DNA of 45,452 nucleotides. It comes from Methanosarcinaceae archaeon (GTDB lineage: Archaea > Halobacteriota > Methanosarcinia > Methanosarcinales > Methanosarcinaceae). The DNA is taken from the NCBI GenBank assembly GCA_016926455.1, contig JAFGOO010000074.1, forward strand, positions 1-45,452, read 5' to 3'. Made by a program: the position numbers and the translations under genes. Shown here in pieces: positions 6,275-45,394 of this stretch; within the stretch, counting starts at the first letter, position 1; each line of letters opens with the position of its first letter. A model generated the notes under the pieces. The model searched no databases. It was not told the DNA's origin and saw only the letters and a list, made by a program, of their open reading frames with translations.

Positions 6275-7270
6275 ATGAAATCATGCATTCAGAAAATAAG
6301 CGAAGGAAAGGACCTCAAAATAACAGAGGCTGAGAAGGCGATAACAAAAATATTCAATAGTGCCACAGATGCACAGATAGGTGCATTCCTGATGGCACTG
6401 AAAATGAAAGGAGAGACACCATATGAGATTGCTGGGTTTGTAAAGGGAATGAAAAAAGCGGCAAACCTCATCTACCCAAATGTCGACGGCGTGCTTGTAG
6501 ACACCTGTGGAACAGGCGGTGACATCCACAACACCATCAATGTCTCAACAGCTGCAGCCATCATAACAGCAGCTTCAGGGGTGTCCGTTGCGAAACACGG
6601 TAACTACTCTATCACATCCCTCTCAGGCAGCGCTGACGTGCTAAAAGAACTCGGGATCAAGATAGACCATACACCAAACAATGTAAAAAAGTCCATAGAG
6701 AACACTGGTATCGGGTTCATGCTTGCACCGGTGTTCCACCCTGCAATGAAAAGAGTGGCAGGTCCAAGGAAGGAACTGAGCGTACGGACGGTCTTCAATA
6801 TTCTGGGACCGCTCACAAATCCTGCCAGCGCGACCGCTCAGTTGATAGGGGTATATGACAAGAACTTGTGTGAAACCCTTGCTCAGGTGCTCAAGATAAT
6901 CGGTACAAAACATGCACTGGTCGTAAACGGTGATGGCATGGACGAGATATCCAACATTTCTGATACCTATGTTGCAGAACTCAAAAACGGCGCAATCTCA
7001 ACCTACACAATGACACCTGAAGAACTTGGCATCAAACGGGCTAAAGCAAACGAAATTGTAGGTGGCACTCCAAAGGAGAACGCTCAGGATATTAACTACA
7101 TCCTCAAAGGTGAAAAAGGACCAAAAAGGGACATTGTTGTTATCAATGCCTCCGCAGCCCTATATGTGGCTGGCAAGGCGGATTCCATCAAGAATGCCAT
7201 TCCAATAGTAGAGGATTTAATCGACAGCGGTAAAGCCCTAGAAAAGCTCAACGAGTTCAGGGAAATTTAA
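6275..7270 (+). CDS. trpD: anthranilate phosphoribosyltransferase
   Basis: The GAFLMALKMKGET, DTCGTGGD and NILGPLTNP motifs. The ORF opens at 6224, but its first 17 codons run through the TGTACA repeats, so ATG 6275 (or 6263) is preferred. Confidence 0.9.
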   Translation: MKSCIQKISEGKDLKITEAEKAITKIFNSATDAQIGAFLMALKMKGETPYEIAGFVKGMKKAANLIYPNVDGVLVDTCGTGGDIHNTINVSTAAAIITAASGVSVAKHGNYSITSLSGSADVLKELGIKIDHTPNNVKKSIENTGIGFMLAPVFHPAMKRVAGPRKELSVRTVFNILGPLTNPASATAQLIGVYDKNLCETLAQVLKIIGTKHALVVNGDGMDEISNISDTYVAELKNGAISTYTMTPEELGIKRAKANEIVGGTPKENAQDINYILKGEKGPKRDIVVINASAALYVAGKADSIKNAIPIVEDLIDSGKALEKLNEFREI

Positions 7271-7290: not shown

Positions 7291-7995
7291 ATGAAAGTTG
7301 CAAATAAACAGGCCCCACGAGTGAAAATCTGTGGCATGAAATCTGCTGAGGACATCGAACTTGCGGTCAGGTGCGGTGCAAATGCTGTCGGTTTAATCGC
7401 GGATGTACCTGTGGACACACCCCGAAAAATTGACACCGAAACAGCAATAGAACTGGCTTCCCATGTCCCTCTTTTTGTAGATTGCGTGCTTGTTATCATG
7501 CCTGCTGACGGTGAGCAGGCGGTCGGGATGATCGATACAGTCAAACCGGATGTTGTCCAGCTCCACAGCGACCTTAGTGTCGATAATCTTCAATTCATCC
7601 GGGACAACACCGGTGCAGGCATCGTAAAAACATTCTCGATTCCTGTTAGCACAACAAGTTCAGCTCATGAAGCTGTCGAACAGGTGGTAAATGGTATCAA
7701 CGACCTTATAGACCGCGACCTTGCAGACGGCATCCTGCTGGACTCCAGCAAAGCAGGAAAGGTAGGCGGTACGGGTGTAGCACACGACTGGTCCATCAGC
7801 AGGGTAATTGTGGAGAACGTGGACATCCCCGTGATTCTTGCAGGCGGACTCAAACCCTACAATGTACGAGATGCAGTTCTCCAAGTTCACCCCTATGCAG
7901 TGGATACTTCGTCTGGTATCGAGACTAACGGCAAAAAGGACGGCGCAAAGATGTGCAGATTCGTAAAAGAGGCAAAATGTGAGGTGTCCCAATGA
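7291..7995 (+). CDS. trpF: phosphoribosylanthranilate isomerase
   Basis: RVKICGM N-terminus, ...VQLHS..., LAGGL and VDTSSGIE motifs of TrpF. Confidence 0.88.
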   Translation: MKVANKQAPRVKICGMKSAEDIELAVRCGANAVGLIADVPVDTPRKIDTETAIELASHVPLFVDCVLVIMPADGEQAVGMIDTVKPDVVQLHSDLSVDNLQFIRDNTGAGIVKTFSIPVSTTSSAHEAVEQVVNGINDLIDRDLADGILLDSSKAGKVGGTGVAHDWSISRVIVENVDIPVILAGGLKPYNVRDAVLQVHPYAVDTSSGIETNGKKDGAKMCRFVKEAKCEVSQ

Positions 7996-9641
7996 TCAAC
8001 TTTGACCTTGACATAGAAGAGTTTTTAGGACTTGTAAATAATGAAACAGGTATTTACGCACCTGCATTTGTGCAACTTATGGCGAAAGTCAGGGTTGAGT
8101 GCTCACCCCTTAATCTATATTCAGTGTTGCAACATGCCAGATACTCCTACCTACTCGAGTCAGTTGAAAAAGAGAAGCGACATGCAAGGTTCTCTTTTGT
8201 GGGCGCAGACCCTGATGTGGTGGTTAGTATCAAGAATCGGGTCCTTACACTGGATTTTTCAACAGATTCAATAAAAAAATCCAGAAACAGTCCAATCGAA
8301 TCGGGGCTTGTGGATTATATTCAATCAAAAGTTGCCCAGGTATGCACAGTCGAAGTGGTAGGGAACGGCATTCTGCACGCCCAAATAAATGAAGGAATTG
8401 ATGTACTGGATGCTTTTCGTGCGGTTTTCCCCACAGCAAACGGTACTGTGCTCCTGAACCAGAAACGTTTCGATAGACAGACCTTCCTTGGTGGTGCGAT
8501 TGGCTACAATGGTTATGACATCGTGTATGACAGCTGGTTGGATATCGAAAAAAAATTTGAGTCAGAGGTTCCTGATATGCAGTTCGCAATTACAACAAGG
8601 ACATTCATGTTCGATCATCTGACATATGATACCTACATCGTGATCACCCCCTTCGTGACCACTGGATGTGACCCTAAATATGTATATGAAAATGCTGTAT
8701 TGGATGCGGAATTGATGTGTGAATATCTGGTAATGGCAGCAGAAACCGAAGCTGCAGATAGAACATCATGCAATGATATAGAAATTATGACACTGTCTCA
8801 TCCCGCCTGTAATATGAAACGAAAAGAGTTCGAGAACGCAGTCCTAGTCGCAAAAAAGCATATCATCGATGGGGATATCTTCCAGGTTGTGCTTTCAAGA
8901 AGGTATTCGGTTAAGATTAAACAGAATCCCCTTGAACTCTACAAAACACTACGAAAGATAAACCCGAGCCCTTATATGTACCTCTTCAAGTTCAGCGATC
9001 TTGCAATTGTAGGTGCTAGTCCAGAAACTCTCATGACGGTACACCAGCGCAAAGTTATCACGAACCCCATAGCAGGAACATGCCCTCGAATTGGAAACGA
9101 AGAAGAGGACGCTGAATCTGCCCGGAGGATGCTAGATGATGAAAAGGAGTGCGCTGAACATGTAATGCTGGTGGATCTAGGTAGAAACGACGTGCGCATG
9201 GTGTCCAAAAGTGGCACCATCAAGGTCGACGATTTCATGTCGGTTGTAAAATACTCACACGTGCAACATATCGAAAGCACGGTAAGTGGCGTTCTACAAG
9301 ATGAATGTGACCAGTTCGATGCAACAAGGGCGATATTCCCTGCAGGAACGCTATCTGGGGCGCCAAAGATACGGGCAATGGAGATTATCGACAGTCTTGA
9401 GACTGCCGCCCGTGGTATCTATGGCGGAGGTGTTGGGTATTATTCCTGGAACGGGGATGCCGATTTTGCGATAGTCATTAGGACCATAATCCTGAAAGAT
9501 GACACTGCTTACGTCCAAGCAGGTGCCGGAATCGTCGCGGATTCGGATCCCACATATGAATACAATGAAACCGAACGCAAGATGGCAGCAATGATCAATG
9601 CTATTGGAAGTAGTCTAACTAGGACCAGAGGCAAACAATGA
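7992..9641 (+). CDS. trpE: anthranilate synthase component I
   Basis: LLESV N-terminal Trp-feedback motif and a chorismate-binding domain (IFQVVLSRR, NPSPYMY, GASPE, FPAGTLSGAPK, GIYGGGVGY). ATGA overlap with trpF. Confidence 0.93.
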   Translation: MINFDLDIEEFLGLVNNETGIYAPAFVQLMAKVRVECSPLNLYSVLQHARYSYLLESVEKEKRHARFSFVGADPDVVVSIKNRVLTLDFSTDSIKKSRNSPIESGLVDYIQSKVAQVCTVEVVGNGILHAQINEGIDVLDAFRAVFPTANGTVLLNQKRFDRQTFLGGAIGYNGYDIVYDSWLDIEKKFESEVPDMQFAITTRTFMFDHLTYDTYIVITPFVTTGCDPKYVYENAVLDAELMCEYLVMAAETEAADRTSCNDIEIMTLSHPACNMKRKEFENAVLVAKKHIIDGDIFQVVLSRRYSVKIKQNPLELYKTLRKINPSPYMYLFKFSDLAIVGASPETLMTVHQRKVITNPIAGTCPRIGNEEEDAESARRMLDDEKECAEHVMLVDLGRNDVRMVSKSGTIKVDDFMSVVKYSHVQHIESTVSGVLQDECDQFDATRAIFPAGTLSGAPKIRAMEIIDSLETAARGIYGGGVGYYSWNGDADFAIVIRTIILKDDTAYVQAGAGIVADSDPTYEYNETERKMAAMINAIGSSLTRTRGKQ

Positions 9642-37611: not shown

Positions 37612-38445
37612 ATGCATAGGCCTTCAATACCCGCTGAAGTGAAGCAAATGACCTGGAGATTCATCGACACTGACAAAATAGATGGCTACTACAGTGCAGC
37701 TTTATTCGAATCAACCGCTAGGCATGTGGGGGCTGGCGAAGTTGATGAGACCATCCTTTTCTGGCGTGTAAAAAGTCCGGCCGTCTATCTTGGATACCAC
37801 CAGTACGTGGAAGATGAGATATGCGAAGATTATTGTACTGAAAATGGCATTCAGGTAATCCGCAGGGTGCTTGGTGGAGGGTGTGGATTCTGCGATGAGA
37901 ACCAGATTCTTTTTTCCATTATAGGATGTGAAGGAAGTGGTATAATCCCATCAAGCATAGAAGATGCGTATTCACATGTTCTTGGGGGGGTTACGACTGC
38001 ACTTGAATCCCTTGGTTTTGAAAGTGAATTCGAACCCACCCGCAGTTCTATTAATTCTAGAGGGCGCAAGATATCTGGAAATGCTCAGGGCAGGATCAAT
38101 GGGGCAGTACTAGTCAATGGTAGTTTACTGCTGGATTTTGATTTTGATGAGATGGACAGAGTGCTAAAAAACCCCACAAAGAACCTTACTTCTGGCGTGC
38201 AACATGCCCGGGATGGGATGATAACGCTCAAAGATTTACTTAATGGTGAAAATTATTATATCGATCATGTAAAAAAGATACTTAAAAGTGGATTTGAAAT
38301 TGTACTTGGTGTGGAAACGAAAAATGGTGTTCTTACAAAATCAGAAATCGAACTTTCCAACCATTTGGTTGAACGTCACCGCCGGAGTGAGTGGATATAC
38401 CGAATGGACAACAAAAGGAGAAAAAGACTGGAAAGCAAAAAATAA
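37612..38445 (+). CDS. lplA: lipoate-protein ligase, catalytic (LplA N-terminal / BPL_LplA_LipB) domain protein
   Basis: RRVLGGGCGFCD (RRxxGGGxVxxD motif) and GRKISGNAQ (catalytic Lys). ATG 37645 (MTWRFIDTD...) is an equally good start. Confidence 0.82.
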   Translation: MHRPSIPAEVKQMTWRFIDTDKIDGYYSAALFESTARHVGAGEVDETILFWRVKSPAVYLGYHQYVEDEICEDYCTENGIQVIRRVLGGGCGFCDENQILFSIIGCEGSGIIPSSIEDAYSHVLGGVTTALESLGFESEFEPTRSSINSRGRKISGNAQGRINGAVLVNGSLLLDFDFDEMDRVLKNPTKNLTSGVQHARDGMITLKDLLNGENYYIDHVKKILKSGFEIVLGVETKNGVLTKSEIELSNHLVERHRRSEWIYRMDNKRRKRLESKK

Positions 38446-38502: not shown

Positions 38503-38793
38503 ATGAGCTACGAAGGATACAAACAGGGAAAGCACAAATCAAAAGGCGGTCTTATCCGTTCTTTTGTCAAGTTAAAAGACAATACTATAGAAGACATCTC
38601 ATTTTCAGGGGATTTTTTCCTGTTCCCAGAATCTTCAATCGAACTGGTTATGGGGTCCTTAAAAGGAACCGTTGCCACGTATGATTCCGTACTTCATACT
38701 GTAAGGGTGGTATATGACTTTGAAGGAATAACTGCACCGGGCACCGCTCCAGAAGATTTTGCAATTTCCATCATGAAGGCAATAGAATCTTAA
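38503..38793 (+). CDS. lplB: lipoate-protein ligase accessory C-terminal-domain protein (LplB-like)
   Basis: 96 aa; KGGLIRSFVKLKDNTIEDISFSGDFF.FPE pattern of the LplA C-terminal domain as a stand-alone polypeptide, as in bipartite archaeal ligases. Confidence 0.7.
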   Translation: MSYEGYKQGKHKSKGGLIRSFVKLKDNTIEDISFSGDFFLFPESSIELVMGSLKGTVATYDSVLHTVRVVYDFEGITAPGTAPEDFAISIMKAIES

Positions 38794-38811: not shown

Positions 38812-39813
38812 ATGAATATGTGCCACTTAACCCCTGAAATGTTCACCCCAGACATCCACAAAAGGATGCTAAAAGCAAAACAAAAATCACTTGAAAATTA
38901 TGGCAAAAAACTGAATTTTTTCATTACATCAGACATCTTTCCTTCTGTATCCCTAACGGGCAGCCACTGCCAATTAAGTTGCAAGCATTGCGAAGGCAGG
39001 CTCCTCAAACGCCTGATACCTGCTACATCACCTGTAAAGTTTGAGAAGGTTGCACGCCAGCTTGCAAAAAACAGTGCCAGAGGATTGCTCATAACTGGCG
39101 GATGTGATGAGGCGGGAAAACTCCCGACTGTAAATTTTGCGGAGTCCATAAAAAGGATTAAACAGGAAACAGACCTCATCCTCATAGCTCATACTGGTTT
39201 CATTTCGCGTGGGGATGCATTTATTTTGAAAGATAGTGGTCTTGATGGCATCGCATTCGATGTGGTTGGGGACATTGAAACCGTCAACCGCGTTTACGGC
39301 TTAAAGGTCACCGAAAATGATTATTTGCAAAGCCTTCAGGCTATTTCAGAAGTCGGGATTAATGTCCTGCCACATGTCTGTGTGGGACTTGATTTCGGTA
39401 GTATCCGTGGAGAACTCAAGGCACTTGAAATTATTAGGCATATTAACCCTTCCACATTAATAATAACCGGCCTCATGCCAATTGTGGGCACGCCTATGTC
39501 AGCAGTCAGGCCAGATCCTCGTGATTTTGCAGAGGTGTTCTGCAGGGCGGCAGAATTGTTTCCTGAGGTTCAGATAACTCTTGGTTGCTCCCATTCCATT
39601 GGTCGTGATCGTGAGATGATAGAATTAATTGCACTGGAGAGTGGTGTTTTCAATATTGCAATCCCTACCTGCAATTTTGTAAAACATGCATTTTCGGAAG
39701 GGTATAAAGTAGAATATTTTGGCACCTGCTGCGGGGTACGGCCTACGGATTCTACTTGCATCGACTCAAATATATCCCATAACAGTGAATGGGTTTATGC
39801 TACTCTAAAATGA
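38812..39813 (+). CDS. radical SAM protein, LipS-type candidate lipoyl synthase component (paralogue A)
   Basis: VSLTGSHCQLSCKHCEG (CX3CX2C), GLLITGGCDE and PHVCVGLDFG. C-terminal CC motif (GTCCG). Alignable along its whole length with 40846-41829. Confidence 0.75.
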   Translation: MNMCHLTPEMFTPDIHKRMLKAKQKSLENYGKKLNFFITSDIFPSVSLTGSHCQLSCKHCEGRLLKRLIPATSPVKFEKVARQLAKNSARGLLITGGCDEAGKLPTVNFAESIKRIKQETDLILIAHTGFISRGDAFILKDSGLDGIAFDVVGDIETVNRVYGLKVTENDYLQSLQAISEVGINVLPHVCVGLDFGSIRGELKALEIIRHINPSTLIITGLMPIVGTPMSAVRPDPRDFAEVFCRAAELFPEVQITLGCSHSIGRDREMIELIALESGVFNIAIPTCNFVKHAFSEGYKVEYFGTCCGVRPTDSTCIDSNISHNSEWVYATLK

Positions 39814-39832
39814 ATTATTTTAACTCTCTGGT

Positions 39833-40846
39833 ATGATTCCCATGCAAACTGAACCATCCTGTAAAAAAGTTCGCGCATCTCTTGGTACGCTTGGGGTGCT
39901 TGGAATGGAATTCTTAATGATGGATGCACCTCCTACAACTGCGTATCTGCAGATATACACGGATAAACGCTGCATTGCAAACTGCCGTTTTTGCTCACAG
40001 GCTGGGGGAGGAGACGGCGATTTGAAGAAAATAGCACGTGGTATGTACATACCATCCGACTTCGATAACGTTGTGTTAAGACTTGGAATTGCATTTGAGC
40101 GTGGTTACCTTAAGAGGGCGTGCATCCAGACTGCAATGTATCCTGAGATGTGGGAGGATACCACACACCTTATCAAAAGCATTAGGGAACTAAGCCTAAT
40201 TCCGATTTCTGTATCCGTTTTCCCTCTGAGTGATGAAAAATATTCTACCTTAAAGGATTTAGGTGTTGATAAACTGGTGATTCCGCTTGATGCATGCAAC
40301 TGCAAACTGTTCAGTTTTATCAAGGGCAAGGAAGCCCACAGCATCTATGAATGGGATTCACACCTTGACGGGATTAAGCGTGCAACCCGGATATTAGGGA
40401 GGGGGTCGGTGGGTACACATCTAATTATCGGAATGGGGGAAAGTGCTGAAGATGCACTTGAATTGATAAGCAAACTGCATGGAGAAGGTGTTTACTCTGC
40501 TCTTTTTGCTTATACCCACCTTCCGGGAACTCGAAATATTCCTTCAAACCTGAATATTAAACACTACCGATCTGTTCAATTTGGTGCCTATTTGATTCGT
40601 GAGAACCTTGTATCCTTTGCAGACATGGCCTTCGTGTCCGGCGAAGTGGTGGATTTTGGAATTCCAGAGGTCGATATACAGAGCCTATTAAAAAGTGGCG
40701 AAGCATTCAAAACAACAGGTTGTCCAGACTGTAACCGTCCTTATGCCACAGAGACCCATCAGGAGATATTCAATTATCCCTGCGAACCTAATGAAAACGA
40801 AATCGGCGTCATCAGGGAGCAACTTGGGATCACTGGTGAGAAATAA
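39833..40846 (+). CDS. radical SAM protein, BioB/LipA-like fold (second LipS-type candidate)
   Basis: YTDKRCIANCRFCSQ (CX3CX2C), THLIIGMGES (BioB-like G.GET-type motif) and a C-terminal GCPDCN...C cysteine cluster. Confidence 0.75.
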   Translation: MIPMQTEPSCKKVRASLGTLGVLGMEFLMMDAPPTTAYLQIYTDKRCIANCRFCSQAGGGDGDLKKIARGMYIPSDFDNVVLRLGIAFERGYLKRACIQTAMYPEMWEDTTHLIKSIRELSLIPISVSVFPLSDEKYSTLKDLGVDKLVIPLDACNCKLFSFIKGKEAHSIYEWDSHLDGIKRATRILGRGSVGTHLIIGMGESAEDALELISKLHGEGVYSALFAYTHLPGTRNIPSNLNIKHYRSVQFGAYLIRENLVSFADMAFVSGEVVDFGIPEVDIQSLLKSGEAFKTTGCPDCNRPYATETHQEIFNYPCEPNENEIGVIREQLGITGEK

Positions 40847-41829
40847 TGAGCGAAATCGGAAGACGGTTGGAAAATGTGGATATGATCCGCAAGAGAGTAT
40901 TGGAGAAAATAGACGAACTGGATTTAAGTGAAACTACAAAGGAAGAGATGTCTAAATCCTTTAAATCCAGGCTAAATTCATTTTCAACTAATATTATTTT
41001 CTTTACTAAACCTTTCACTCCGGTTTCTGTTACAGGTACGGAGTGCGAACTGAATTGCAAACACTGTGAAAAAATCTACTTAAAACACATGCTTGATGGA
41101 AGCCACGGTAAACTCAGTGCTATTGCTCAAAATCTGGCTTTAAGAGGACATCGTGGAATCCTCCTGTCCGGTGGCAGCAAAACCGATGGGTCAGTTCCCA
41201 GTTATGAAGTTTCCGACGAGATTCGCCGAATCAAAGACGACACACACCTGCAAATAAGTGCCCACACCGGAATCGTAACAGAAGAACAGGCAAAACAGCT
41301 TTCTCCATGGCTTAACATGGCACTTGTTGACTGTATCGGAAGTGACGCCACGATCTCGGGTATACTGGGGCTTCCAAACACAGTTGATGATTATGACCGC
41401 ACACTCAGGTTCCTGACAGAAAACGGTGTTCCTATCGCACCACATATCATCGTGGGGTTAAACCATGGAAAGCTGGATGGCGAGTTCATTGCAATCGATA
41501 TGGTTAAAAAATATAATCCGAATGTTGTTGTGATTGTTATTTTCATTCCCACAAAGGGTACTAACTGCGCAGATGCTCATAATCCTTTAATAGAGGATGT
41601 TGCAAAAGTGATTATCCGGGCAAGGCAGGAGATGCCCGATATCCCCCTATCCTTGAGTTGTGTGCGTCCCGGAGGAAGGTATCGTTCGAGGCTTGATGAA
41701 TGTGCAATTCTCTGTGGTATCGACCGGATTGCAGTTCCGAGCCGAAGTGCCTATAATCTGTGCAAAGATGTAGGATTGAAAATTCATGAGGTTGATAAAT
41801 ATTGCTGTTCTTATGAGGTAATAGTGTGA
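40846..41829 (+). CDS. radical SAM protein, LipS-type candidate (paralogue B of 38812-39813)
   Basis: VSVTGTECELNCKHCEK, GILLSGGSKTDG and PHIIVGLNHG. C-terminal CC motif (KYCCS). The start overlaps the upstream stop (TAATG). Confidence 0.75.
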   Translation: MSEIGRRLENVDMIRKRVLEKIDELDLSETTKEEMSKSFKSRLNSFSTNIIFFTKPFTPVSVTGTECELNCKHCEKIYLKHMLDGSHGKLSAIAQNLALRGHRGILLSGGSKTDGSVPSYEVSDEIRRIKDDTHLQISAHTGIVTEEQAKQLSPWLNMALVDCIGSDATISGILGLPNTVDDYDRTLRFLTENGVPIAPHIIVGLNHGKLDGEFIAIDMVKKYNPNVVVIVIFIPTKGTNCADAHNPLIEDVAKVIIRARQEMPDIPLSLSCVRPGGRYRSRLDECAILCGIDRIAVPSRSAYNLCKDVGLKIHEVDKYCCSYEVIV

Positions 41830-42734
41830 AAATTGCGGCTTCATATAAGGATATAAAAATCATGGCACCAGATGATGCATCCTTTTCATTTTTCAAAAGT
41901 CCCTTTGCAGCGCATGATACAGGTAGTGCTGTAGACATTGCTTATGGTGATTTCGGTTCTATGGCAGTTTTACCGGTAGATGGAACAGTTGTTGATGTCA
42001 AAGAGTTCGATTCCCCAACTCCCTTTAAGGATCGTGATTTCAAGGAGTACATAACAGCAATCCTTTGTGGTGAGCTGCTTGTAAAGATACTGCATGTCAA
42101 ACCTGCTGTTAAGATTGGGGATTGCATTCGTGCTGGGGAATATTTTGGAACATTCATAAGAAGTGGTTACTATTATTTCTGGAATTTCCCACACTTGCAT
42201 GTTGAAGTCCGAAGGCCGGATGATTATTTGCGGGCGAGCAACAACATGGTGCTTGATGTGCCGGTTTGTGTCATTGAAAAATGTAATAATAAACCTGAAA
42301 ATCTCAGTGTTTTCGAATTTAAAGGCGAAGTTGTGTTTTCCAATAATATGTATGCACTCGTAGACTGCCCTGATTATAGCACTTTTGGTCTGGTCAATGG
42401 TTATTCTGTTAAAGGTTTCTTGCTTGATGGATTTATTCCAATAGGTGAACATGCGCTACAAAGATTTGGTTTAATAGGTACAAAACAAAATGTTCCGCCA
42501 TTTAAATATTTCAAGTCAATTGGCGATTCGTATCTGGTACACCCGTCAAGTGTGAATCTTAGAGTATTTGATGGAAATGACCAATTGTTAAAAGTTGCAG
42601 GAGCATCATTTATTTTAAGCTTTGGTAAACCTTTAATAAAATTAGTTCCTACACAACATGGCGCATGCCTTCCACAATGCGGTGAGAAGATTACCGTTAA
42701 AATTGCAAAACGTATACATTGCATGTTAAAGTAA
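41826..42734 (+). CDS. hypothetical cytoplasmic protein with an M23/LytM-like (duplicated hybrid motif) domain
   Basis: AAHDTGSAVDIAYG..G..V.PVDGTVVDV ... ILHVKPAVKIGDCIRAGEYFGT ... FPHLHVEVRR resembles the M23 H..D / HxH core. No signal peptide. GTGA overlap with the upstream gene. Confidence 0.45.
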   Translation: MKIAASYKDIKIMAPDDASFSFFKSPFAAHDTGSAVDIAYGDFGSMAVLPVDGTVVDVKEFDSPTPFKDRDFKEYITAILCGELLVKILHVKPAVKIGDCIRAGEYFGTFIRSGYYYFWNFPHLHVEVRRPDDYLRASNNMVLDVPVCVIEKCNNKPENLSVFEFKGEVVFSNNMYALVDCPDYSTFGLVNGYSVKGFLLDGFIPIGEHALQRFGLIGTKQNVPPFKYFKSIGDSYLVHPSSVNLRVFDGNDQLLKVAGASFILSFGKPLIKLVPTQHGACLPQCGEKITVKIAKRIHCMLK

Positions 42735-42753: not shown

Positions 42754-43179
42754 GTGAAAGTTGAAGATTTTGATTTCCCCGAAGATAGACTATATTTAAA
42801 AAATCATGTATGGGTCAAGCCTTATGGGGACATTATCCATATCGGTATCACGGAACTCGGGCAATCGCTTTCCAAAGGGATAGTACATATCGACCTACCA
42901 GATGTTGGTGATATTATCCACAAGGATGATTTTTTGGTCGCATACGAGACCATCAAGGCAGTATCACAGATATCACTTCCATTTGAGTGCACGGTTGTAA
43001 GCGTCAATGATGACCTATGGGATGACCCAAATATCATAAATAACGATCCTTATAATATCTATATGGTGGAAGTAAAAGGGGATTATGAGAACAGCGGCTT
43101 GATGGGTGTCGTGGAAGCTGTTGCGTACTATGGGGATTTGATCGCAAAAGAGAGAGAACGTTACGAAGGATACGAATGA
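42754..43179 (+). CDS. GcvH-like lipoyl-carrier protein, divergent paralogue 1
   Basis: LYLKNHVWVK...GIT..G, the acceptor-lysine motif YETIKAVSQISLP and NNDPYN.YMVEV. GTG start after GAGGCG. Confidence 0.75.
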   Translation: MKVEDFDFPEDRLYLKNHVWVKPYGDIIHIGITELGQSLSKGIVHIDLPDVGDIIHKDDFLVAYETIKAVSQISLPFECTVVSVNDDLWDDPNIINNDPYNIYMVEVKGDYENSGLMGVVEAVAYYGDLIAKERERYEGYE

Positions 43180-43212
43180 TATGATTGATATCTTTTTAGG
43201 AGGAGATAACCA

Positions 43213-43632
43213 ATGGAAATAGAAGGATATGAACTACCTGATGAGCTGTATTATACCCAGGATCATGTATGGGCAAGGGTGGAGGATGACGGAAACGTCA
43301 GAGTAGGAATGAATTCATACGGTGCTGTTGCTGCAGGAACAATCGAATTTATTGACTTACCAGCGGTAGATGACGAATTTGAAGCAGGCGAAGCATTCGG
43401 GTCATTGGAATCTGCAAAGTGGGTAGGTGGACTTACCATGCCTGTCAGCGGTAAAATCATTGAAGTAAATGAAGATATTGAAGACGACCTTGAACTGATT
43501 GCAGAAGAGCCGTATGGAGATGGCTGGTTGGTTTTGATCGAGCCGTCCAAACTGGATGAAGACCTTGAAAAACTCATCCATGGTGGTGCAATTAAACCAT
43601 GGTTTGAGGAAGATCTTGCATCAAGAGAGTAA
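43213..43632 (+). CDS. GcvH-like lipoyl-carrier protein, paralogue 2
   Basis: YYTQDHVWARVEDDG, the acceptor-lysine motif SLESAKWVGGLTMPVSGKIIEVN and EEPYGDGWLV. Strong RBS TAGGAGGAG. Confidence 0.8.
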   Translation: MEIEGYELPDELYYTQDHVWARVEDDGNVRVGMNSYGAVAAGTIEFIDLPAVDDEFEAGEAFGSLESAKWVGGLTMPVSGKIIEVNEDIEDDLELIAEEPYGDGWLVLIEPSKLDEDLEKLIHGGAIKPWFEEDLASRE

Positions 43633-43652: not shown

Positions 43653-43694
43653 GTCTTTGCAGTGAGATTTATCCCAGCAAAGACTACTTTTTTT
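43653..43694 (+). terminator. hairpin plus T-tract between convergent genes
   Basis: GTCTTTGC (43653-43660) pairs with GCAAAGAC (43677-43684) and is followed by T7 at 43688-43694. Confidence 0.4.
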
Positions 43695-44439
43695 ATATCC
43701 TGTAGTTCCATTTATCTGATTTATATTTAGGCAAAAGTTCCTGTGCTGTCTGTTCTTCAGCTTTGCTAGGTTTTGAATCCACTAGTTGTACACCAAAACG
43801 TTCCTCGAATTTTTGCCGAATCACTCCTCTCACCTTTTCCATTTCCACTTTCTCAGGGAGTTCTTTATCCATCCATGTCATTCCTTCTTCGATAGAGACA
43901 ACCTGTTTATCGCTTATCTTCTCAAGCGGGATATTTGAGAGACTAAGCATTTCCTTTATATCAAAATCTAAAAGTAGTGTACCATGCTGCAGAAGTTTGC
44001 CGTTCCACCTTGTCTGTGCATTGCCTGAGATTTTCCTGCCGTCAACAATGACATCGTTTATAGGTCTAAAATCAGCATTCAATCCATACTCGTACAGTGT
44101 ATCTATTAGCATGCCGCATATCTGGTGGTATGAATCCGTGACATCAAGCGGAAACAGTTTATCATCTATCGTACCAATGACGCCGTAGTTGACCTGACGC
44201 CCCCGATCATCCGAGAATGCAAGTCCTCCACCACTTATGCGCCGTACGATTGTGTAATCCTTGCATCGCTTAAGGTTCAGTTCCACATCTGCCTTCTGAA
44301 AATATCCAAGGATAATGGATTTGGTGGGATCCCAGAATATCAAGGTGTTTCCCTCATCGTTTTTCAGGATAGATTCGTTCATTGCCATCATGTACCTGAT
44401 GTCAACCTTTCCAAAATCGATTACTCGCCATTCATCCAT
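43693..44439 (-). CDS. second lipoate/octanoate-protein ligase-like protein (catalytic domain only)
   Basis: RRISGGGLAFSD and DGRKISGNAQ motifs. No partner C-terminal-domain gene next to it. The track ORF starts at TTG 44481; ATG 44439 (MDEWRVIDFG) is preferred. Confidence 0.78.
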   Translation of the reverse strand: MDEWRVIDFGKVDIRYMMAMNESILKNDEGNTLIFWDPTKSIILGYFQKADVELNLKRCKDYTIVRRISGGGLAFSDDRGRQVNYGVIGTIDDKLFPLDVTDSYHQICGMLIDTLYEYGLNADFRPINDVIVDGRKISGNAQTRWNGKLLQHGTLLLDFDIKEMLSLSNIPLEKISDKQVVSIEEGMTWMDKELPEKVEMEKVRGVIRQKFEERFGVQLVDSKPSKAEEQTAQELLPKYKSDKWNYRI

Positions 44440-44527
44440 TTGATCACTTTTGAAATAGCAGGTATGTTTTAACTTCGACAAATATTGAGACCGAAATAAG
44501 AGTCTATAATTTTGTATTATTATTATA

Positions 44528-45394
44528 TTATTTCATCTTGCGTATTGCGAACTCACATGCCTTCGATAGTGGATCATATGCTTCAGCTACAGCAGGACAG
44601 TATGCAAGTTCCGTACTGTAGAGGTCGTGCAGGTCCATTCCAGCTTTGATTGCAAGAGATATCAGATTTACCCGCGCAGCTGCGCCTTCTTCGCCGATTG
44701 CCTGACCACCTATTATTTTTCCGGTTTTTGCATCTGCCAGTATCTTAACGGTAATTTCCTTGGCACCCGGATACTATTCAGGTCTGGTGAACCCGCTTGC
44801 TTTTCCGATGACGACTTCATATCCTGCGGATTTTGCAAAGAACTGATTGAAACCGGTTGCTGAAACTTCTATTTTACCTATGACCGAAACAAAGGTTGTC
44901 AGGGAACCCCCAAATGTATCATAACCACCAGCAGCGTTAGTTCCTGCTGTGATCTCCTGGCGGTAGGCAGTGGTCGAAAGCTGTGACATCCATGGCATGT
45001 GGTTTATTGGACTTACGGTCTCAACACAATCACCGATTGCATAAATTCCTGGAATACTTGTTTCCGTCTTTGCATTGGTCATAATTCCCCAGTTTCCAAG
45101 TTTGCATCCCGCATCCTTTGCTAGATCCCAGTTAGCGCGAACACCGGATGCCATAATCACCATATCCGCCGGAAGAATTTCACCGTTTACGGTTACAGAC
45201 GTGACTTTATTATCACCAGAAATATTCTCTAATGAGGCGCCCATCATTAATTTGATACCCGTTTCCTTAAGACTCTTTTCAAGAATCCTTGCAATATCTG
45301 GATCAATTGATTTCGGGAAGGAGTGTGGTAGCATTTCAACCAGCGTCACATCAATGTTTTTTGCTTTAACCCAACTTTGACAGTTTTCTCTCCT
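44528..45394 (-). pseudogene. pyridine nucleotide-disulfide oxidoreductase (NADH oxidase / CoA-disulfide reductase family), interrupted by an in-frame TAG and lacking a recognisable N-terminal part
   Basis: ...VTLVEMLP..., GIYAIGDCVE, then RPE-TAG(44774-44776)-YPGAKEITVKIL...AYCP...DP (intact dimerisation domain) to TAA 44528-44530 in the same frame. Upstream, the same frame hits TAA at 45395-45397 and no GxGxxG is seen. Confidence 0.5.

Follow-up and report, generated by a model that had tools for sequence, protein, structure and literature searches.

The window analysed here is a stretch of 45,452 nucleotides from a Methanosarcinaceae archaeon (positions 1 to 45,452 of the forward strand of contig JAFGOO010000074.1, NCBI GenBank assembly GCA_016926455.1). 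It carries a predicted lipoyl-protein assembly cluster, within which an open reading frame (ORF) of 302 amino acids encodes a protein that, judged by the annotation of its homologues, is almost certainly a member of the DUF8155 family (PF26482/PF26483). From the company that its genes keep across the archaea, DUF8155 is very probably a dedicated accessory of protein lipoylation. The gene and the two domains predicted for its product are located as follows.

41826..42734, forward strand: the DUF8155 gene, 302 amino acids; homologues carry PF26482 and some also PF26483.
41826..42245, forward strand: predicted N-terminal M23/LytM-fold domain, approximately residues 1-140, with H30, D37, H90, H123, H125 and E127 (AlphaFold2, Foldseek and conservation).
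42288..42719, forward strand: predicted C-terminal β-rich domain, residues 155-298, corresponding to DUF8155_C in relatives (AlphaFold2; D201-G202 and K272 conserved).

The ORF's GTG start codon lies inside the GTGA of GAGGTAATAGTGTGA, in which TGA is the stop codon of the upstream radical S-adenosylmethionine (radical-SAM) ORF (40846-41829), so that the two genes overlap by 4 nt. A Shine-Dalgarno-like GAGGT motif is located 5' of this GTG, and the start is further supported by the conserved residues A5 and P15, which precede the next in-frame methionine and are invariant among homologues. The translation contains the motifs AAHDTGSAVDI, LPVDGTVVDV, KIGDCIRAGEYFGT and FPHLHVEV. No transmembrane segment was found in a Kyte-Doolittle scan (maximum 19-residue mean of 1.37), and no signal peptide or hydrophobic N-terminus in the hydropathy of the N-terminal 25 residues (mean of 0.03). 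The ORF, its start within GTGA, the motifs and the lack of export signals had all been described in an initial annotation of this DNA, and each is confirmed in the sequence. The product is predicted to be a cytoplasmic, two-domain protein.

The AlphaFold2 model, built on a 25-sequence alignment, has a predicted local distance difference test score (pLDDT) of 88 and a predicted template modelling score (pTM) of 0.87. Foldseek searches of the PDB with this model matched more than 20 M23/LytM chains, most with a probability of 1.0 and with target-normalised TM scores of 0.4-0.58, and for the N-terminal ~140 residues the high-probability matches were M23/LytM proteins alone. The matched structures include lysostaphin, LysTt72, LasA (3it5, among the top matches), Csd1/2, LytU, SpoIIQ, LECT2, LytM, EnvC and ShyA, while profile searches gave weak matches to LECT2, LysTt72 and ShyA. 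The sequence match by itself is marginal; on the evidence of the model, the N-terminal domain has the M23/LytM fold, which bears out the M23-like segment noticed in the initial annotation.

The C-terminal domain, modelled separately, reached a pLDDT of 90 and gave no confident match in Foldseek against the PDB (best E-value 0.08, probability of at most 0.63). Likeness of its 'GxSLxL...IKLIP' segment to the riboflavin-synthase barrel was considered and rejected, the profile E-values of 0.3-1.3 being at noise level. Its conserved residues are D201-G202 in 'LDGGIP' and K272 in 'IKLIP', the latter present in 277/311 sequences.

Residue conservation was assessed over 311 members, comprising 72 from the ANME-2 (anaerobic methanotrophic archaea)/Methanoperedens clade to which the window protein belongs, 120 diverse representatives and 119 haloarchaeal sequences. 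D37 and H90 are present in all 311 relatives, H125 in 310 and H30 in 308, the remainder being gaps. Profile hidden Markov model (HMM) alignments to LysTt72 and LECT2 place D37 at the Asp of the HxxxD motif, H90 at the mid-domain His and H125 at the second His of the HxH motif. The canonical position of the first His corresponds to residue 33, which is G in the window protein and G, L, H or F among relatives; the invariant His is instead found three residues upstream, so that Hx6D (H30...D37) replaces HxxxD, in keeping with the departure from the canonical motif that had been seen at the outset. The first His of HxH, H123, is conserved in 119/119 haloarchaeal sequences and 110/120 diverse representatives and in 30/72 members of its own clade. 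The window protein retains both the HxH motif (H123-L-H125) and the mid-domain His (H90). No Cys is conserved in the family alignments.

The constellation of the family is thus H-x6-D ... H ... (H)xH, a putative metal site, and its invariant residues argue for a functional metal centre. H30-x6-D37 together with H125 would form the site, and H90 and H123 would assist catalysis; in LytM and lysostaphin, the His at the first position of HxH is a catalytic residue. In LasA, of the M23A group, the ligands His23 and Asp36 are ~13 residues apart, which provides a precedent for variable His-Asp spacing in the M23 fold.

Compared with the M23B enzymes (LytM, lysostaphin, MepM/ShyA and LysTt72), the DUF8155 protein appears to share the fold, the aligned Asp, mid-domain His and HxH His, a G-x-x-G-rich 'VxxGxxxG' segment and the HLHxE motif. 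In contrast to them, it is predicted to be cytoplasmic, is archaeal and without a murein substrate, has Hx6D instead of HxxxD, scores below the Pfam M23 threshold, possesses an additional conserved C-terminal domain and is encoded in a lipoylation rather than a cell-wall context. LasA likewise has non-canonical His-Asp spacing (~13 residues against 7 in DUF8155), but is secreted and staphylolytic. In LECT2, EnvC/NlpD and SpoIIQ the same fold serves binding or activation and not cleavage. LECT2 keeps zinc but not catalysis. These proteins resemble the ANME-2/Methanoperedens members without the first HxH His, but EnvC, NlpD and SpoIIQ are without the metal ligands that DUF8155 retains in 308-311 of 311 sequences.

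Searches of the local Pfam copy and NCBIfam found no family model matching the protein other than a weak M23 match, and the NCBIfam search gave no match. Family membership comes from its homologues, of which 76 clusters (39-96% identity, 93-100% query coverage) have PF26482 assigned in precomputed Pfam annotation, and distant relatives additionally carry PF26483 (DUF8155_C). The hosts of these 76 clusters are ANME-2, 'Methanogaster', Methanoperedens and Methanosarcinales metagenome-assembled genomes (MAGs). An exhaustive HMMER search retrieved 219 representative clusters at E ≤ 1e-3, and DUF8155 was met in archaeal records only in this analysis. A 'Candidatus Freyarchaeota' protein is found in one member cluster, from which it follows that Asgard archaea also carry the family; haloarchaeal relatives are named Halobacterium, Haladaptatus, Halorussus, Haloarcula and Halogranum. 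Public labels of the relatives read 'hypothetical protein' and, occasionally, 'Peptidase family M23' or 'MepM/NlpD'.

The genes surrounding DUF8155 in the window, assigned by profile matches, make up the lipoyl-protein assembly cluster.

37612..38445, forward strand: LplA1, catalytic subunit of lipoate-protein ligase (PF21948, E 8e-38).
38503..38793, forward strand: LplB, small ligase subunit (NF053749, 64.4 bits against a cut-off of 65; PF10437).
38812..39813, forward strand: LipS1a, second LipS1 paralogue, 33% identical to LipS1b (NF053742, 214 bits, below the cut-off of 230).
39833..40846, forward strand: LipS2-type radical-SAM gene (NF053743, 269 bits against a cut-off of 270).
40846..41829, forward strand: LipS1b, LipS1-type radical-SAM gene, translationally coupled to DUF8155 (NF053742, 248 bits, above the cut-off of 230).
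42754..43179, forward strand: GcvH-like carrier 1 (PF01597, E 4e-23).
43213..43632, forward strand: GcvH-like carrier 2 (PF01597, E 1e-32).
43693..44481, reverse strand: LplA2, catalytic-domain-only ligase/transferase paralogue, convergent to the operon (PF21948, E 3.5e-42).

The coupling between LipS1b and DUF8155 is conserved well beyond the window. The search alignment reached the Methanosarcinales clade only and yielded 60 related ANME-2/Methanoperedens loci from MAGs, in 54 of which a LipS1b orthologue lies directly upstream of DUF8155. Four of the remaining six are cut by a contig end, which leaves L003 and L058 as true exceptions. The two genes overlap by 4 nt in 25/51 loci, and are separated by no more than 4 nt in 39/51 and no more than 29 nt in 49/51. 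The coupling is therefore tight far beyond chance, and the gene is no chance neighbour confined to one genome. Of the outcomes that the initial annotation had named as refuting its view, neither lack of an M23-like fold nor absence of the gene from orthologous clusters was observed. In Methanoperedens the pair remains intact though the rest of the cluster is located elsewhere. No neighbourhood could be read from the contigs of P0085, P0095 and P0119, which were of insufficient length or uninformative.

Some Methanoperedens loci (L060 at 7001-7090, L057 and L053) keep LipS1b, while of the DUF8155 gene no more than a fragment is left (30-143 residues matched), possibly through gene decay or assembly breaks. 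In others (L001/L002, 3011-6998), a block of NIR_SIR (sulfite/nitrite-reductase-like), TusA, OCD_Mu_crystall, ferredoxin and LipS2 genes is divergent from LipS1b-DUF8155, and L102, an unrelated locus, also has an OCD_Mu_crystall gene close to the cluster (7456-8442).

Outside this clade, DUF8155 keeps lipoylation genes as neighbours while the immediate neighbour changes. In L099 (31% identity) the genes run LplA-LipS1a-LipS2-DUF8155, and the opposite strand carries LplAB-LipS1b-GcvH; the order in L102 is DUF8155-LipS2-LplA-LipS1. In a third phylum (L103/G302), DUF8155 is present in 60/201 sampled genomes, and synteny was read from the 30 best loci, with 1.5 kb of DNA viewed on each side. A LipT-like flavoprotein-DUF8155-LipS2-LplA arrangement occurs in 11 of these 30 loci, and DUF8155 is directly followed by a stand-alone LplB (PF10437) in nine. 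LipS1 is found in 58/60 DUF8155-positive and 80/141 DUF8155-negative genomes of this phylum (Fisher, odds ratio 22, p = 1.3e-9). The DUF8155-LplB unit is convergent to a CoaBC (DFP/Flavoprotein) gene in nine to ten loci of one phylum (among them L106-L111, L120, L127 and L131).

In haloarchaeal loci (62-72% G+C), a DUF8155 gene of ~280 aa is divergent from a gene for an LplA/B-catalytic-domain protein of ~234 aa in 18/21 cases, with intergenic gaps mostly below ~100 bp. The ~234-aa partner is most like LipL/LipM, at 34-48 bits against equivalog cut-offs of 400-450 (L087-L098), and probably belongs to the ligase/transferase superfamily as a member not yet characterised. A dihydroorotase gene adjoins the pair in many genomes; it was considered as a partner of DUF8155 and judged to be a housekeeping neighbour. 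The haloarchaeal genomes with DUF8155 contain LipA, E2 and GcvT, lack LipS1, and have their LipA gene at a distance from DUF8155. The co-occurrence with LipS1 is thus strong in the third phylum, but haloarchaea, with LipA in its place, do not show it. Genes for ligase, synthase or carrier are conserved as neighbours across lineages, including 20/30 of the third-phylum loci, and on this evidence the link of DUF8155 is to lipoylation in general and not to LipS1. The tie to the radical-SAM genes that had been proposed from the window therefore holds as a non-chance link to lipoate, and does not hold as a radical-SAM-specific one, since LipS2, LplB, LipT-like and LipL/LipM-like genes are the neighbours elsewhere.

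The same observations bear on the idea that the protein is an ordinary M23 peptidase, for instance one that hydrolyses the cell envelope, or has no relation to the genes around it and lies there by chance. The labels 'Peptidase family M23' or 'MepM/NlpD' are given to relatives in some databases, and a minority of loci have no lipoylation neighbour. The protein has neither a signal peptide nor a transmembrane segment, its hosts are without murein (Methanosarcinales are not known to have any), synteny recurs in several distant archaeal lineages, and the co-occurrence with LipS1 has p = 1e-9. A wall hydrolase, already doubted in the initial annotation, is rejected on localisation and synteny, and this whole explanation is highly improbable.

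A helper of the LipS enzymes in sulfur or Fe-S chemistry, for instance in rebuilding the auxiliary cluster that is sacrificed, with its His/Asp site used for metal delivery, would account for the 4-nt overlap with LipS1b in the window protein's own clade, and for the sampled Halobacteriota, in which DUF8155 is present in the three genomes with two LipS1 copies and absent from the three with one. Set against this, no Cys is conserved in the family, haloarchaea have DUF8155 without LipS1 and with a LipL/LipM-like gene adjacent and lipA distant, and nine loci pair DUF8155 with LplB alone. The sulfur-handling option, one of those first raised for this gene, was dropped on these grounds and is now very unlikely; the change of the gene's neighbours between lineages also argues against it.

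Back in the window, there are three radical-SAM genes (LipS1a, LipS2 and LipS1b; 38812-41829), whereas the described pathway needs two; both LipS1a and LipS1b types recur in L099/G301. The genome of the window (1.6 Mb, 77% complete) was searched together with two genomes of the same order (G228 and G263, 99-100% complete) and G301, and E2 (PF00198), GcvT (PF01571) and LipA (TIGR00510) were not found in any of them. Because the genome is without E2, GcvT and LipA, the two GcvH-like proteins (42754-43632) would be orphan lipoyl carriers, reminiscent of LbpA in sHdr systems. DUF8155 together with LipS1 occurs in ANME-2a/c/d-type MAGs and Methanoperedens lineages and is absent from every listed genome of the same GTDB family (20 or more complete, methanogen-sized genomes). 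The lipoylation cluster may characterise the methane oxidisers among the Methanosarcinales, possibly after lateral acquisition.

A pyridine-nucleotide disulfide oxidoreductase gene (44528-45349, reverse strand) adjoins LplA2 and continues past the end of the window. It contains an in-frame TAG at 44774-44776, and read-through with pyrrolysine would give Pyr_redox_2 and an intact Pyr_redox_dim. The gene could encode a dihydrolipoamide-dehydrogenase-like partner of the carriers, or be a pseudogene.

The varying neighbour, the lack of a conserved Cys and the presence of the family in both LipS1/S2-type and LipA-type organisms leave the ligase/carrier side as the common denominator. The best reading of the sequence data is accordingly that DUF8155 would act there, and not in sulfur insertion by the radical-SAM enzymes. 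Whether it does so as a metal-dependent hydrolase is an evenly balanced question on the sequence and the model. Given the invariant metal-site residues and the peptidase fold, an amidohydrolase acting on an N6-acyl-lysine amide is the most economical mechanism, and the amide that some M23 DD-endopeptidases cut, in the D-Ala-mDAP cross-link, is formed with the amine of a side chain and so comes chemically close to N6-acyl-lysine. That an acyl-lysine amide is the substrate is a tentative suggestion, about one chance in three.

In the mechanism that follows, DUF8155 would be co-produced with, and probably bound to, LipS1b and would serve the two GcvH-like carriers. The M23 groove with its metal site would engage the N6-octanoyl- or lipoyl-lysine arm of a carrier, or a lipoyl-lysine or lipoyl-peptide, and the side-chain amide of the acyl-lysine would be hydrolysed. 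Wrongly or incompletely modified carriers could in this way be edited or recycled, with the free acid returned to the LplA/LplB ligase. Taken as a whole, this reading of DUF8155 as a lipoylation accessory that is probably an amidohydrolase on the octanoyl/lipoyl-lysine arm is plausible, at slightly below even chances.

Several observations weigh against it. The Pfam profile of Peptidase M23 (PF01551, local Pfam) gives 16.2 bits (E 0.012) with the protein, below the gathering score of 28.7, and the canonical HxxxD His is absent. In 42/72 members of the window protein's own clade, H123 is replaced by P, V or A, which fits a non-catalytic role better. No lipoylation gene lies within 1.5 kb in 10/30 of the best third-phylum loci, a span so short that the absence of a neighbour is weak evidence, and none lies within the DNA examined in L003, L058 and L104. 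In vitro, LipS1 and LipS2 suffice to form the lipoyl group (PMC9585515), so that sulfur insertion as such would not require DUF8155.

The loss of the first HxH His in that clade also favours a serious rival, in which DUF8155 is a non-catalytic docking or scaffold subunit whose M23-like groove, with a structural metal, and C-terminal domain hold the GcvH-like carrier or its acyl-lysine arm and bridge it to LipS1b/LipS2 or LplA/LplB without cleavage. Translational coupling to a partner enzyme is typical of stoichiometric complexes, the immediate partner switches between lineages (LipS1b, LipS2, LplB) as expected of an adaptor, and LECT2, SpoIIQ and EnvC are among the Foldseek matches. Degenerate LytM factors, however, are typically without metal ligands, whereas H30, D37, H90 and H125 stay invariant over three lineages of archaea, and the full HxH is kept by the window protein, the haloarchaeal relatives and most of the diverse representatives. 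A docking role is somewhat unlikely on balance, at three chances in ten.

A bolder form of the hydrolase reading makes DUF8155 a missing enzymatic step, namely a metal-dependent acyl-lysine amidase or amidotransferase that moves octanoyl or lipoyl groups between carriers or removes them, as an analogue of LipL or of a lipoamidase on an M23 scaffold. This is improbable, at one chance in five; it would, if true, explain how the catalytic-domain-only LplA/LipM/LipL-like proteins are served in archaea without acyl carrier protein (ACP).

No M23-like protein is among the accessories described for the Lpl-LipS1/S2 route, which agrees with the initial remark that such a component was not part of known lipoate pathways. 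These accessories are LipT, an FAD oxidoreductase, LipX, a putative class-I glutamine amidotransferase, and LipY, a transporter (PMC10332631, PMC6067878; bioRxiv 10.64898/2026.10.01.755906). LipX is translationally coupled (ATGA) to the ligase gene in bacterial sLpl(AB)-LipS1/S2 clusters, and LipT and LipX are still without assigned functions (PMC10332631). Like DUF8155, they are accessory genes embedded in Lpl-LipS1/S2 clusters, LipX is also of an amide-handling class and would fit an unrecognised amide-handling step, and in 11 loci a LipT-like flavoprotein gene lies right beside DUF8155. There is no homology between them and DUF8155, which has a different fold and in this analysis was met in archaeal records only.

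The reaction proposed for DUF8155, removal of the lipoyl group from N6-lipoyl-lysine, is carried out by known lipoamidases, namely Enterococcus Lpa of the amidase-signature family and the sirtuin-type CobB and SIRT4. These have unrelated folds and chemistries, with a Ser-Ser-Lys triad and NAD dependence, respectively, and the activity of DUF8155 is hypothetical. A literature search found no paper mentioning DUF8155, and no relevant one linking M23 proteins or lipoamidases with archaeal lipoylation, or ANME with lipoate or GcvH.

What is known of archaeal lipoate assembly is partial and leaves out the octanoyl donor and the partners of LipM/LipL-like proteins, and DUF8155 is a concrete and testable candidate for a missing step such as editing, recycling, transfer or docking. 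Because haloarchaea that are open to genetics, such as Halobacterium salinarum, have homologues, the hypothesis is directly testable. If it is true, the M23 fold would gain a role inside the cytoplasm, in maintaining a cofactor. A large lipoylation cluster is kept by ANME-type archaea despite the absence of classical lipoate-dependent complexes. On the bolder reading above, DUF8155 and a second LipS1 paralogue would, in these archaea without E2, GcvT and LipA, help with making or policing the cofactor on the orphan GcvH-like carriers.

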